Shown: piece by piece, positions 10,723 to 26,453 of the stretch
How the letters are laid out: each line of letters begins with the position of its first letter
How positions within the stretch are numbered: position 1 is the first letter of the stretch
Virus record (IMG/VR): IMGVR_UViG_2671180892_000013
DNA from: a virus
Lineage: Duplodnaviria > Heunggongvirae > Uroviricota > Caudoviricetes
Length of the DNA stretch: 36,388 nt
Direction: 5' to 3' (one strand)
The notes under the pieces: model-generated
What the model was told of the DNA's origin: nothing
What the model saw: only the letters and a program-made list of their open reading frames with translations
The model's database searches: none
Made by a program: the position numbers and the translations under genes

Positions 10723-11157
10723 TCAGACTTCTGGTGATAAAGGCCAGACTATATCCGGGGCATCACTTACATTAATATTTTCAAGTAACTCAAGATAATC
10801 CAGCATCGCATTAAATCTGGTTGTCTCCATTTCGTTCAGCCTGCCAAGCTGTAATTTTGATGGCCATTGTTTTTCATTAATCAGGTTGTTAGCCTCATTA
10901 ATGCGCATCTGTTTCATCATTTCTGCCTGTTCCACCTGTTCCTCATGGGTCAATGGTGGACGTTCTTCCCAAGATGGCTGGTTATCAGTGCCTGCAACCA
11001 TTTTGTACCCTTCCCGATAACCAAGATAAAACTCCTGATAGACTGCATCACTTACCTCAATACAGTCATCCGGCCACGCATCGAGAGCATCGTAATAATC
11101 AGATTTCAGTTCACTGTTATAAAATGCATTTCTTGATGGACTGTAAAAATAACTCAT
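10723..11157 (-). CDS. G: tail fibre assembly protein G (chaperone)
   Basis: ATG at 11155-11157 (MSYFYSP...) overlaps the H stop in an ATGA junction; the track ORF extends 11 codons further upstream, which I do not favour. Confidence 0.8.
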   Translation of the reverse strand: MSYFYSPSRNAFYNSELKSDYYDALDAWPDDCIEVSDAVYQEFYLGYREGYKMVAGTDNQPSWEERPPLTHEEQVEQAEMMKQMRINEANNLINEKQWPSKLQLGRLNEMETTRFNAMLDYLELLENINVSDAPDIVWPLSPEV

Positions 11158-12887
11158 CAGACCCCCTCCGCAATAAACCCAATATTCCATCCACCGTTAT
11201 CTCCGGTGATGCTCAGAGTAAAGCCAGTTGCAGTAATAGCTGTAATGGCGACACCCTCAACACTCCCACCGTGTGACGAACGGAAAACGGGGATCACGTA
11301 CCAGCACTGACGGGCAAATGGTGTCGGAAAATTCACCTGATACTCTTTATTCACCACACCAGTTGCCCCGGAAAAATAACTGTTAAAAAACTGCTTCAGC
11401 ACACCGCCAGTTATTCGGTGATAATTGCTGCCAAATGAAAATTCATCTTCACAAACACCCCGACGCCATAGTGTTGTATTGTCTTTAACCGTATCAGAGC
11501 CGCTGAAACGGTGATACATTTCCCCTGCTCCGGTGATGAAAATCTGCGCGCGTCTGTTCTTGTTATACGCAGCCTGAAAACCTGCACCATTCGATGGCAC
11601 TTCATCTGCATTACCTGAATATGCAAGAAACTGTGAAACCTCACCCATTTCGTAGTTATTATTGCTACCGATTCCGTATGCTCCCTGTTGCAGAGCACTT
11701 TCAGCCTTATCAACCGTCGGTTTAAGTCCCAGATTCTGAATAAACAAAGTCGGGTCAGGAATATCAGCACCATTGCGGTCCTTTGCCAGTCTCGCGCTGG
11801 CGTTGTCCATCGCAATTTTTACCGCTTTCAATGTCGCCGCAACATTTTCTGACACGCTGTTTACATCGTTCCCCAGTTGCACCATTCCTTTAACACTCAC
11901 TGATGCTTCTGGATAATGTGCACTGGTGAACACCTGATTCCACGGTGTTTCATCATCGGCAATTTTCGATAACATGCTGAATCGACAGTACATCTTGCCA
12001 TCATTAGCGACATAAATCTGTGCACGTCGATTGTCGTTGTAACAGGCCTGGAAACCAGCACCATGTGTTGGCACTTCTGGATAGCCGACAGCTGTACCAT
12101 AAGCAAAAAATTGCGATTTAGTTCCCATGGTTTTCAGATAAGCCAGGCCAATTCCATAATCTCCTGGCTGAATCGCTGATGCAGCTTTATCAACAGTCGT
12201 TTTCAATCCCAGATTCTGAACAAACAGTGCCGGATTGGGAATATCAGAACCATTGCGGTCTTTTGCCAGTCTGGCGCTGGCATTATCCATCGCTATTTTC
12301 ACTGCTTTTGGCGTTGCAGCGACTGTTTCATCATTGCTTTCCACACCGCTATACAGACGTACAAATCCCTTTTCTGTCAAAGACGCAGAAGGATGGCGGC
12401 GCGATTGCTCATGAATTTCTATTTGTTGATCTACATAATGACGGGTTGCCAGCACGACAGCAGGGTCGATTTTCAGGGTGATATTGTCCGTGCTGCTGGT
12501 AATCAGCACCATGCGCACGGTCTGGGTGCGCCCGCTGCCTTCAGCCAGTTGCGGCTTATAGCTTTCCGGGCAGTTGCCCACGGCAATCAATGCCCCGGAC
12601 TCATCAAACAGGCCCACTTCACGTATCCACCAACCGCCCTCGTTTTCAGGGATCACCTGTTCAGCAATAATCTGGCTGCTGTTCTGCGGGTCGATGTACA
12701 GCATATTCAGCGCAGCCCGGCGTTTCTCATTTACTAATGCTGTCTGCTTTGCGTCCGGCGTTGGCAATGTTCCGCCGCCATCGCCTACCGCCATATGGGT
12801 AATTTTTAAAGGCACACCGAGCGCGGCGGCGCTGGCAAGTTTCGCCGCGCCAATATCCGTCAGCAGAGTATAAAATTTTGTGCTCAT
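11157..12887 (-). CDS. H: tail fibre protein H
   Basis: 576 aa; conserved P2 gpH-like N-terminus, divergent C-terminal part with an internal tandem duplication. Confidence 0.88.
   Translation of the reverse strand: MSTKFYTLLTDIGAAKLASAAALGVPLKITHMAVGDGGGTLPTPDAKQTALVNEKRRAALNMLYIDPQNSSQIIAEQVIPENEGGWWIREVGLFDESGALIAVGNCPESYKPQLAEGSGRTQTVRMVLITSSTDNITLKIDPAVVLATRHYVDQQIEIHEQSRRHPSASLTEKGFVRLYSGVESNDETVAATPKAVKIAMDNASARLAKDRNGSDIPNPALFVQNLGLKTTVDKAASAIQPGDYGIGLAYLKTMGTKSQFFAYGTAVGYPEVPTHGAGFQACYNDNRRAQIYVANDGKMYCRFSMLSKIADDETPWNQVFTSAHYPEASVSVKGMVQLGNDVNSVSENVAATLKAVKIAMDNASARLAKDRNGADIPDPTLFIQNLGLKPTVDKAESALQQGAYGIGSNNNYEMGEVSQFLAYSGNADEVPSNGAGFQAAYNKNRRAQIFITGAGEMYHRFSGSDTVKDNTTLWRRGVCEDEFSFGSNYHRITGGVLKQFFNSYFSGATGVVNKEYQVNFPTPFARQCWYVIPVFRSSHGGSVEGVAITAITATGFTLSITGDNGGWNIGFIAEGV
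11493..11849 (-). repeat. tail-fibre internal repeat, unit 2 (about aa 347-465)
   Basis: ENVAATLKAVKIAMDNASARLAKDRNGADIP... block. Confidence 0.8.
11973..12329 (-). repeat. tail-fibre internal repeat, unit 1 (about aa 187-305)
   Basis: ETVAATPKAVKIAMDNASARLAKDRNGSDIP... block; about 85% DNA identity to unit 2 at a 480-bp period. Confidence 0.8.
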
Positions 12888-15414: not shown

Positions 15415-16221
15415 ATGAGTGTTATGAATCCAATAAGTTCTAATATATTTAATGCTGAATTTTTAAACACCCCGGCAGCGGCACTTGCCGCATGGATTTC
15501 CATTATTGGAGCTGTTATAACTTTGGTGACGATAGTTATAAGAGCACTATTCAAATATAGAAAATCTCATGATGTAATTTTGAAAAAATCAGGAATACCT
15601 GCGTTTATATTAAATTTTTTTCTTATACGAATATCATTAAAAAGGCTGCCTACTATCACATGGGCTGAAAAATCAATCACGGTTCTCTTTTCACTTCTTT
15701 TTTTGTATGCAATTTATATTTTTGGTCCAGTTTTCATCCAAGCCATTAGAACCCCACCAAATAGCACATTGCTTTATTGGATAAAGTCCGGTGAATCATT
15801 TTATATGTCAAAAAAACTGGCGACTGCAGCTACAATATTAACCACTCCTGATTGGGAAATATCAAAGGATGATTGCGAAGAGTCATCCTCTGCCAGTACA
15901 GAGAAGTACAAATCATTAACTATCGAACATAAAGAAATTCTTTGTAAACTACTAACCACTGATGAAGGGAATGCTTACATTGATGAAGAAGTCAAGAATT
16001 TCGTTAAAGACAAATTCTTTATCTATTCCTTTGCCCCAACAACCATATTTATTCTATTATGGATTTCTTTGGGTTTTATACTGACCATTCACTATTCTAA
16101 AAAAGTTAGGAAATATATTCTGACTGAACAAAAAAATGCAATTCATTGGGCATATGGTGAATTCAAGACAGAAGGAATCTATTCAATATATCAAGAGTTA
16201 GAACGTAAGACTCACCATTAA
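15415..16221 (+). CDS. hypothetical multi-pass membrane protein; cargo gene in the S-V intergenic region
   Basis: 268-aa ORF in very AT-rich DNA, several hydrophobic helices, aggtgg SD before the ATG; opposite strand to the flanking late genes; 3' end overlaps the S 3' end by 59 bp. Confidence 0.6.
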   Translation: MSVMNPISSNIFNAEFLNTPAAALAAWISIIGAVITLVTIVIRALFKYRKSHDVILKKSGIPAFILNFFLIRISLKRLPTITWAEKSITVLFSLLFLYAIYIFGPVFIQAIRTPPNSTLLYWIKSGESFYMSKKLATAATILTTPDWEISKDDCEESSSASTEKYKSLTIEHKEILCKLLTTDEGNAYIDEEVKNFVKDKFFIYSFAPTTIFILLWISLGFILTIHYSKKVRKYILTEQKNAIHWAYGEFKTEGIYSIYQELERKTHH

Positions 16222-24576: not shown

Positions 24577-25449
24577 CTACCAATTCATGCTTTCTTTTAA
24601 TTCAGTTCGCGCATTTTCAACAAGTTGTACCAACTCTTTAAGACTATCAGTTAACACTTGATGACTACCTTTATTTGTTCTATATGTTAACATATTTACA
24701 TTTAATGTTTTTTCAATAACAGGAACCATATCTCTATGAATACTTTTATCAGCCATAACCATATAATGTGGTTTAACAGCATTGTGCTTGAAAAAAGCAT
24801 CTTCCAGAAGAAGCCTTATATCGGGGTCATTAGCCCCACAACCTATAAATAGAAATGTATGCGTTAAACCCAAGGCATTAAGAATCTCGTAAAAATCTCT
24901 GTACTGTGATCTTGCCTTTGCATAATCACTTCTTGAAAAAATCAAGTTTGACGTATTATCAATTGTGCCGTGAATTTTCAGAATAACACGACCACTATCC
25001 TTTATTGCACTTGCAATATCACTATCAAAATAATTTTTGACACTTACCGTGCCTTCTGTTTCTTTACTAACATATGTTTCATATATTTTATCAAAATTAG
25101 GCGTTACAACAATCCTGCAATCTAATTTAAAAAGAAACTCATGTATATCTGCTTTAGCATAATGTGGATTCAAGAATGCATTTTTTGCAATTTCATCGAA
25201 CCTCCCTTTAGGAAGCTTTGCCTTAATTAATTCACAAGCAGTCAAATAATCTTCGTTTTTAATCAATCGTTTAATTTGTAGCGATGACCCAGAACTGAGT
25301 TCTGGTAAACATCCTTCAAGAAATTGTTTCCAACTTGGAGGCCGTGAATTACCTTTACCAACACTGTTCATTGAGACGCCTGCCCCCAGAAATAAAATAC
25401 ATTTCCGTCTCGCTAAATCGGAGACTAAGCTTTTATCCCAATTAATCAT
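24577..25449 (-). CDS. SIR2-like domain protein (predicted NAD-dependent effector), second gene of a two-gene cargo operon
   Basis: 290 aa; CILFLGAGVS glycine-rich motif near the N-terminus, TPNFD, IHGTID (HG), FLFIGCGANDPD; AT-rich; ATG overlaps the upstream ATPase stop (ATGA). Confidence 0.7.
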   Translation of the reverse strand: MINWDKSLVSDLARRKCILFLGAGVSMNSVGKGNSRPPSWKQFLEGCLPELSSGSSLQIKRLIKNEDYLTACELIKAKLPKGRFDEIAKNAFLNPHYAKADIHEFLFKLDCRIVVTPNFDKIYETYVSKETEGTVSVKNYFDSDIASAIKDSGRVILKIHGTIDNTSNLIFSRSDYAKARSQYRDFYEILNALGLTHTFLFIGCGANDPDIRLLLEDAFFKHNAVKPHYMVMADKSIHRDMVPVIEKTLNVNMLTYRTNKGSHQVLTDSLKELVQLVENARTELKESMNW

Positions 25450-26453
25450 GACTCACTCGCAGCAACATTATCAAGGATACGGGAACAAATACTTTCAAAA
25501 AGCTTCTTAGCATCGTTTACTTTTGAAAAGTGCGATCCTACTACCCCATCTTTATTTTTAAGATTAAAAATTGGAGCATTTGCTAATTGAGACAATGGAA
25601 TTAAGCTATTCATATTCTCAATTTGCCCTAAATCAAAATTCATATCTTGTTTTTTTGCGTAATTATTGATTATTTCTGCTTTCATTGCCTTAGGAATTTT
25701 AAGTGCAATTTTTTCATACGCATTAACTTTTACTTTCTCTCCCCTTACTGTTTTCCCTTTATATTGTTGCATCGCATACCCAAGAAACTTCAGTCTGCAC
25801 TGTAAAGATGAGCCATCGATGATAAAATCTTCACCTTCATTTTTAGTATAGTTTTTCAGGCCATCAGATACACCTTCCATCCAGGCCTTTAGCGAAAGGT
25901 TAATATTATTAAGAGCTAAAAGACTAAACATATCAACAGACATTGGAATAATGAAATAGTCACATGATATTATTATTGCTCTATTCAATGCACCTAATGA
26001 AGGGCCTACATCATATAAAATAAAATCATAGTCTTTATACATGGAGGACAGATGTGAAAAAACAAATGTTGTTTGTATACCTCGAGGTTTCCCTGCCACA
26101 GCGGGGTCCCAATCAGATGCTAAAAAATCCTCACTCAACGCTAACTTGGGATCCCCAGGAATCAAGTCAAAACCAAACCTATCAGTTTTTATTGGAACTA
26201 CACGAGTAGTTGCATATCCTTTTGCCCTCCGAACTGGGGTTAAGAAATTTTCAATTGTATTTCTCTTATCAGAACCATAAAGTTCATCAAGTTTTTTCTC
26301 TCCCAAACAATAAGATGTTGTGTTGCACTGAGGATCGGCGTCAATAACCAACACTTTTTTGTGCATCTCAAGACTAAGATAAGCACCAACATTACACAAC
26401 AATGTAGTTTTGCCAACGCCACCTTTATTATTGAAAAAAACTATACTGTTCAT
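25446..26453 (-). CDS. ParA/MinD-superfamily deviant Walker-A ATPase, first gene of the cargo operon
   Basis: 335 aa; NNKGGVGKTT at residues 8-17, VIDADPQ, ILYDVGPS; no ParB-like gene follows. Confidence 0.75.
   Translation of the reverse strand: MNSIVFFNNKGGVGKTTLLCNVGAYLSLEMHKKVLVIDADPQCNTTSYCLGEKKLDELYGSDKRNTIENFLTPVRRAKGYATTRVVPIKTDRFGFDLIPGDPKLALSEDFLASDWDPAVAGKPRGIQTTFVFSHLSSMYKDYDFILYDVGPSLGALNRAIIISCDYFIIPMSVDMFSLLALNNINLSLKAWMEGVSDGLKNYTKNEGEDFIIDGSSLQCRLKFLGYAMQQYKGKTVRGEKVKVNAYEKIALKIPKAMKAEIINNYAKKQDMNFDLGQIENMNSLIPLSQLANAPIFNLKNKDGVVGSHFSKVNDAKKLFESICSRILDNVAASES

Follow-up and report, generated by a model that had tools for sequence, protein, structure and literature searches.

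The window, a 36,388-nucleotide stretch of viral DNA (Caudoviricetes; IMG/VR record IMGVR_UViG_2671180892_000013), carries on its minus strand the tail fibre gene H (11157..12887; 576 amino acids, aa), which was assigned from the list of open reading frames (ORFs), from matches to the Pfam families PF12571 and PF03406 and from its context in RefSeq. The coding sequence of H contains an internal repeat that is real, old and modular and which, taken as a whole, shows neither the high identity nor the low synonymous divergence (dS) that would mark a recent duplication. Our reading, to which we assign a probability of roughly 75%, is that H encodes a trimeric, P2-type fibre with two paralogous 160-aa modules, each built from a fibre motif, a shaft core and a knob, followed by a gp53-like tip. 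In the same reading, the motif and core are the joints at which these fibres recombine.

The internal repeat of gene H

An earlier, sequence-only reading had proposed that two blocks of about 120 aa recur 160 aa apart, past the conserved N-terminus of the protein and ahead of its distal tip. Both blocks are where they were said to be: the peptide ETVAATPKAVKIAMDNASARLAKDRNG, which was quoted for the first of them, starts at residue 187 (window position 12329, minus strand) and ENVAATLKAVKIAMDNASARLAKDRNG, quoted for the second, at residue 347 (11849, minus strand), an offset of exactly 160 aa or 480 nucleotides (nt). The blocks are present and in phase but are longer than proposed, being 144-146 aa. 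In the self-alignment, copy 1 corresponds to residues 173-318 (11934..12371, minus strand) and copy 2 to residues 333-476 (11460..11891, minus strand), each comprising a fibre motif, a Mu-Sc-like core and a knob (knob 1 and knob 2, respectively). The repeat, spanning residues 173-476, does lie between the N-terminal domain (residues 1-149) and the tip (residues 481-576).

Local alignment of H against itself (BLOSUM62), which had been suggested as a check, gave a score of 417 compared to 32±5 (maximum 55) in 200 shuffles, so that the internal repeat is significant. The alignment has two small gaps, one residue in copy 1 and three in copy 2. In addition, an independent direct-repeat search of the window DNA returned 239 nt at 71% identity with a spacing of 480.

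The extent of divergence is where the sequence-only reading went astray, as it had put DNA identity at about 85%, giving the impression of a fairly recent duplication. Instead, the copies are 64% identical in amino acid sequence and 65% identical in DNA over 429 aligned nt, with a third-position identity of 47%. An identity of 84% is limited to a 126-nt stretch spanning codons 194-235, which encodes KAVKIAMDNASARLAKDRNG..NLGLK..VDKA, and it peaks at 93% in a 42-nt patch (codons 203-216). This conserved core is located at 12183..12308 in copy 1 and at 11703..11828 (codons 354-395) in copy 2, both on the minus strand. The dS between copies is approximately 1.5 overall and 2.7 in the knob part, where it is saturated, versus 0.74 in the core (range 0.22-0.74). 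Tandem Repeats Finder reported nothing, and this is consistent with the divergence of the copies.

A recent tandem duplication, unstable and varying in presence between strains, is refuted by these measurements and we give it practically no credence. The exact 480-nt period and the 93% identical patch would favor it, but the overall nucleotide and third-position identities, the dS of 1.5 and the silence of Tandem Repeats Finder oppose it, as does the retention of both units in the 47 Escherichia coli genomes that cover a deletion-junction probe and in two metagenome contigs.

That retention was assessed using 5426 complete E. coli genomes, 47 of which contain full-length H at at least 98.8% identity. 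Knob 1 and knob 2 gave the same tally each, 48 genomes and 66 places. A synthetic probe for the 480-bp deletion junction, GGTTCTGATATTCCTGACCC, matched 47 genomes at at least 80% coverage, always as two pieces, and all of the matches listed have a span of 880 nt, that of the two-unit form. The junction pattern had no match in the species-representative genome collection. The two metagenome contigs carry the two-unit form at 98-99.5% identity, and the H product is identical to the database protein P0008, for which 265 contigs are on record. Both units are kept in all of the 47-48 complete E. coli genomes that have this allele.

Fibre motif and core

Each unit can be subdivided into three parts: a PF03406 motif, a core of approximately 40 aa and a domain of approximately 85 aa. 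The opening 40 aa of each repeat block, which the sequence-only reading had not identified, correspond to the well-known Pfam family PF03406 (Phage_fiber_2, "phage tail fibre repeat"), which matches H in two stretches with 101.6 bits against a cut-off of 22, the best being residues 169-209. This is followed by the core, which has the consensus AVKIAMDNASARLAKDRNG.DIP.P.LF.QNLGLK.TVDKA.

The motif and core of both units align with residues 111-191 of Mu S (PDB 8JU3/5YVQ; E 7.5e-24), and in tblastn searches the core matches the S genes of Mu, D108 and SfMu as well as 186 K. These matches fall exactly at the G-segment boundary or "Mu-like inversion crossover site" annotated in the respective records, with the LFIQNLGL stretch overlying the inversion crossover site of Mu. 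In H, the equivalent positions are LFVQNLGLKTTV in copy 1 (12192..12227, minus strand) and 11712..11747 (minus strand) in copy 2, as placed by the Mu and 186 annotation, and both copies keep the site at the protein level as LF[VI]QNLGLK.TV.

This raises the possibility that H contains two functional DNA-invertase sites (gix/cix-type), with the segment between them being rearranged as in Mu G or P1 C. The protein-level alignment of both copies with the Mu G-segment boundary and with the crossover site of 186 favors such an arrangement, yet we consider it very improbable. In a hand count, the DNA of copy 2 agrees at 14/26 positions with what we take to be the Mu gix sequence, and neither copy is among the best matches of the window to that presumed sequence. 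The two sites are in direct and not inverted orientation, and the annotation of the near-identical RefSeq prophage contains no invertase gene, an adjacent serine invertase included. Furthermore, the crossover in the one-unit allele described below (L003) lies approximately 10 nt or more upstream of the site, in the near-identical patch, as homologous recombination predicts. As the DNA has decayed, the orientation is direct and no invertase gene is annotated, these stretches are read as decayed relics of an ancestry shared with invertible fibre genes, and not as working sites.

The knob-like domain

The third part of each unit is the domain of approximately 85 aa, with knob 1 comprising residues 236-322 (11922..12182, minus strand) as defined by the profile envelope, and knob 2 residues 396-480 (11448..11702, minus strand). 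The two follow the pattern G.YGIG...SQF.AY...EVP..GAGFQA.YN.NRRAQI....G.MY.RFS......T.W, and no Pfam model for this domain was found when H and its knob-bearing relatives were searched. A search with the 88-aa knob alone using a word-indexed protein search found a single fragment. An exhaustive search of 1.84 billion cluster representatives with a two-copy profile returned 77 clusters at E ≤0.001, and these are fibres with varied N- and C-termini. The hosts of the knob include P2-type fibres, the lambda Stf-type protein P0127 (PF08400), P0125, which has an endosialidase-type chaperone, and P0126, which has a T4 gp34 trimerisation domain and a Gp53-like tip. After local iteration, two full knob copies were present in 3 of approximately 75 clusters, namely those of H, P0125 and P0127. 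The knob is a fibre domain family that is not curated in Pfam and could deserve a definition of its own.

Structure prediction, which had also been suggested for the repeated domain, produced a confident model. AlphaFold2 was run on the knob as a monomer with 58 family members as the alignment, and the resulting model has four long beta strands and a predicted local distance difference test (pLDDT) score of 87.4. A single-sequence prediction of residues 163-576 was unusable (pLDDT 31.7). When the knob model was compared to the PDB using Foldseek, the top matches were the R1 and R2 pyocin fibres at weak E-values of 0.4-1.3, and the top matches in BFVD were all tail fibres. The structural matches 5EFV, 5M9F, T4 gp34 and 6EU4 are all on the published list of "Knob-like domains" (Buth et al. 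2018, PMC6116203). At the level of sequence, the knob alignment profile returned chance WD40 matches only from the PDB. We therefore call the repeated domain Knob-like, a predicted assignment that reflects moderate structural scores and a monomer model.

The residues common to both knobs (G.G, SQF, EVP, GAGFQA, RRAQI, RFS and W) are the most conserved columns of the family and presumably form its structural core. Where knob 1 differs from knob 2, the changes cluster between these conserved motifs, a pattern which, as far as an alignment can indicate, is compatible with diverged surfaces.

The domains that flank the repeat

The N-terminal, baseplate-attachment domain of H (residues 1-149; 12441..12887, minus strand) matches PF12571 (Phage_tail_fib) over the whole profile with an E-value of 6.9e-65. 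At the other end, the C-terminal tip (residues 481-576; 11160..11447, minus strand) has weak similarity to Gp53-like_C (PF21882) over residues 508-570, with a score of 23.2 bits, just under the cut-off of 24.9 (E 9.9e-05). The same family scores above the cut-off, at 51.2 bits, in the knob-bearing relative P0126.

Judged by its domains and neighbors, H is the P2-type tail fibre gene, as the sequence-only reading had it, and it belongs to a P2/186-like E. coli prophage. The gene order is that of a P2/186-like late operon, with H between a homologue of gene I and an assembly gene of the Caudo_TAP family. A 99.9% identical H locus in E. coli 2014C-3307 is flanked in RefSeq by "phage tail protein I" and "tail fiber assembly protein", and the prophage in which it resides is complete, P2-like and inserted beside ybjL.

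Natural alleles and recombination joints

The region had been proposed to be prone to recombination, and this is borne out by three natural variants (L003, L004 and L007). The first of these, L003 (allele B), encodes the 416-aa protein P0124 within an intact P2-like tail cluster. The N-terminal part of its H gene has approximately 70% DNA identity to the window, and the remainder of H, from approximately nt 574 on, is 97-100% identical but lacks 480 bp; in blastn, its homology to the copy 2 core begins at 11828. A three-way nucleotide comparison shows that the informative sites carry copy 1 sequence up to window position 12248 and copy 2 sequence from 11757. The switch occurs in the 10-nt interval CTGATATTCC (12238..12247, minus strand), whose partner in copy 2 is 11758-11767 (minus strand), upstream of the gix relic and still inside the near-identical core. 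The L003 gene is an exact copy 1/copy 2 chimera with one unit. As it matches each copy at approximately 100% while the copies are 65% alike, a gene of this kind is not a recent parent of the two-unit form by simple duplication. The most economical reading of L003 is that the two cores underwent homologous recombination, with deletion of the sequence between them.

The near-identity of L003 to the window in the fibre tip does not extend into the downstream assembly gene (tfa), where L003 7251-7682, when compared to window 10723-11190, has 50-88% identity in 60-nt windows. This drop indicates a further breakpoint at or just past the end of H, and therefore the tip and its chaperone are not always co-inherited.

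Allele C is represented by L007, an intact 631-aa gene in an 8-kb metagenome contig (Ga0153950_1002350, 1456-3351) with its own assembly gene downstream, and by L004, a 1.2-kb (1167-bp) contig. Over H nt 1-450, the identity between L007 and the window is 47-78%, and from there through the second fibre motif, with unit 1 and knob 1 included, it is 93-100%. Both L007 and L004 diverge right past the AATLKAVK of this second motif (H nt ~1070, window ~11818), placing the cassette breakpoint at 11812..11824 (minus strand). Beyond it, L007 has a P2-H-like shaft followed by a glycine-rich PF21722 (Gly_rich_2) tip, and this P2-H-like sequence is also what follows in the translation of the L004 fragment. 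That L004 might be an assembly chimera was considered and rejected, as the same junction is present in the intact L007 contig; allele C is therefore real.

Among 116 database proteins whose distal 414 aa are almost the same, the N-terminal domain varies most (68 of 172 positions). Taken with the junctions above, this shows that cassettes are exchanged at joints formed by the PF03406 motif and the core. Four loci were seen here; the breakpoint of the one-unit allele is placed to within 10 nt, and those of the cassette joints to within a few tens of nt. Haggard-Ljungquist in 1992 and Sandmeier in 1992/1994 reportedly described mosaic fibre genes with horizontal exchange of segments among P2, Mu and P1. 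The joints in H fit that picture, and they also fit relaxed homologous recombination between short, diverged phage sequences, which has been demonstrated (PMC3945230).

Origin of the two units

The sequence-only reading had described a duplication in place. The data fit either an ancient duplication or two related modules that were joined at the fibre motif. In the former, a 480-bp module was duplicated in tandem in an ancestral H-type gene, and occasional conversion or exchange kept the cores similar. We rate this account at slightly less than an even chance. The units share one architecture, and the 160-aa offset between them keeps them exactly in phase. The knobs are reciprocal best matches at 48% identity, with the next family members at ≤46% and ≤42%, and they are sisters in a neighbor-joining tree. 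The core dS is far below that of the knobs, as conversion between copies predicts, and the same history has been inferred for the pyocin knobs (Buth et al., PMC6116203). On the other hand, the bootstrap value of the sister pair is only 54%, unrelated family members are nearly as close (46%), and L007 has unit 1 without unit 2, so that the units need not always have been together.

In the latter account, the duplication is only apparent: a gene with unit 1 and a second motif, as in L007, would have gained a distal cassette (related core, knob 2 and tip) by homologous recombination at that motif. This stacking of modules is a quite possible alternative, which we put at somewhat below even odds. 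Two independent contigs break exactly past AATLKAVK and have a different shaft and tip beyond it. Unit 1 behaves as a 620-bp cassette that is 93-100% identical beside an N-terminus of 47-78% identity, and distal cassettes ride on differing N-termini. That P2, Mu and P1 exchange segments of their fibre genes horizontally is long established. Set against this, no free-standing gene consisting of core 2, knob 2 and tip with an upstream part of its own was found, the sole one-unit allele (L003) is a chimera of the two copies, and an L007-type allele could equally derive from the window type by distal replacement. The lower dS of the core could reflect either conversion between copies or recurrent exchange with fibre genes at large.

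Comparison with known fibres

H shares with P2 gpH and 186 K the N-terminal PF12571 domain and the genomic position I-H-tfa. P2 H carries the PF03406 motif twice, as does H here, and the core is 67% identical in amino acid sequence to 186 K over 75 aa. The similarity to P2-like isolates does not extend far: at megablast sensitivity, only H nt 1-459 are common at at least 85% DNA identity in the phage collection. A protein search of the same collection gave no match covering at least 80% of the query, and only two Hafnia phages have matches that reach beyond the linker and into the knob (32-40% identity). When the distal 414 aa were used as the query, the 120 matches listed were all near-identical E. 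coli proteins.

In Mu S (and D108 and SfMu S; PDB 5YVQ, 8JU3), it is the constant part beside the invertible G segment that aligns with the motif and core. In contrast, H is without an invertible segment, an annotated invertase or an intact gix, and the sequence past the core is unrelated. The resemblance to the T4 gp34 P-domains, phage K gp144, phi11 gp45, the phi812 receptor-binding proteins and the AS12 tailspike is at the level of fold only, with 8-17% identity.

The overall layout predicted for H, two tandem knobs and a lectin-like tip, resembles that of the R-type pyocin fibres of Pseudomonas aeruginosa (PA0620, R1; PDB 6CL5, 6CL6, 6CT8, 6CU2). These also belong to a P2-like contractile tail and have a dedicated downstream chaperone; their two tandem Knob-like domains of approximately 85 aa share an ancestor, and the C-terminal tip is a small, lectin-like beta-sandwich. 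They are among the best structural matches of the H knob model. The two pyocin knobs arose by duplication, and the parts of the fibre that vary most and determine the spectrum are Knob2 and the lectin-like tip, with a role for Knob2 in the killing spectrum being likely (Buth et al. 2018, PMC6116203). However, the profile search of PDB sequences detected no sequence similarity between the pyocin knobs and those of H, and the identity between knobs is 48% in H versus 20% in the pyocin fibre. H is a further example of the tandem knob modules already described for P2-like fibres, a precedent that the sequence-only reading had not recognised, and no new kind of system.

Proposed working of the fibre

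In the proposed mechanism, the H product would trimerise, with the N-terminal domain anchoring the fibre to the baseplate and each unit adding a stretch of shaft and a knob. Past knob 2, the gp53-like (lectin-type) tip would fold with help from the downstream Tfa chaperone. By analogy with related fibres, we infer that this assistance takes place and that the tip makes the primary receptor contact, and the knobs would add length and stiffness to the fibre. The knobs are probably also secondary, saccharide-binding surfaces that help to set host range together with the tip; this is suggested by the analogy with pyocin Knob2 and the K1F endosialidase's beta-prism (PMC6116203). As the natural alleles show, whole distal cassettes are exchanged between P2-like phages via the motif and core joints, and the two units can recombine with each other to yield a fibre that is 160 aa shorter.

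Several points weigh against this reading. The receptor-binding role of the knobs is argued by analogy. For L003, the case for a deletion and not an ancestral state is one of parsimony. With just 2 contigs, the one-unit allele is rare, and therefore recombination between the copies is not frequent. Finally, the order of domains differs from that of the pyocin fibre, in which the knobs are adjacent via one helix-plus-turn and are then followed by a 70-aa iron-binding shaft. In contrast, each knob of H is preceded by a linker of 60-70 aa (motif and Mu-Sc-like core), and knob 2 almost directly meets the tip.

A more speculative suggestion, which we consider unlikely, is that diverged units sharing a near-identical 40-nt core constitute a built-in switch, with rare recombination, between the units or with the fibre genes of other prophages, generating one-knob, two-knob or re-tipped fibres within a population of lysogens. 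If true, this switch would keep variants in host range or fibre length permanently available to the phage, and no dedicated recombinase would be needed.

The range of bacteria open to attack by a phage, or by an engineered tailocin, is determined by the architecture of the tail fibre. The locus is a clean natural example of the cassette assembly of P2-type fibres, with one-knob, two-knob and alternative-tip alleles matched, and the mapped breakpoints provide practical guidance on the choice of fusion points for re-targeting P2/P4 delivery particles or R-pyocins.

Other features of H and the prophage

A 134-aa ORF in an alternative frame inside H (11411-11815, minus strand) was considered and rejected as a gene. 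P0122 (491 aa) is a frameshifted H allele which enters the alternative frame past the start of knob 2, and therefore broken copies of the H-type fibre gene circulate.

H is immediately followed by the tail fibre assembly (chaperone) gene (10723..11190, minus strand), which belongs to Caudo_TAP (PF02413). Its longest ORF overlaps the end of H by 34 nt (11157-11190). The start used in RefSeq is instead at the H stop codon and gives a protein of 144 aa.

Elsewhere in the window, a 290-aa SIR2-family protein and a 335-aa ParA-like ATPase are encoded as an adjacent pair (24577-26453, minus strand) beside the portal gene, at a site that is without core P2 genes. Against the PADLOC defence profiles, the SIR2 protein matches ThsA (1.1e-21) and LmuA (2.6e-20), and the pair is probably anti-phage defence cargo. 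A 268-aa ORF on the plus strand (15415-16221), which had no PADLOC match, is assigned to DUF6216 in the near-identical RefSeq prophage. It is antisense to the late tail genes, between a virion morphogenesis gene and the baseplate gene V, and looks like a moron insertion.

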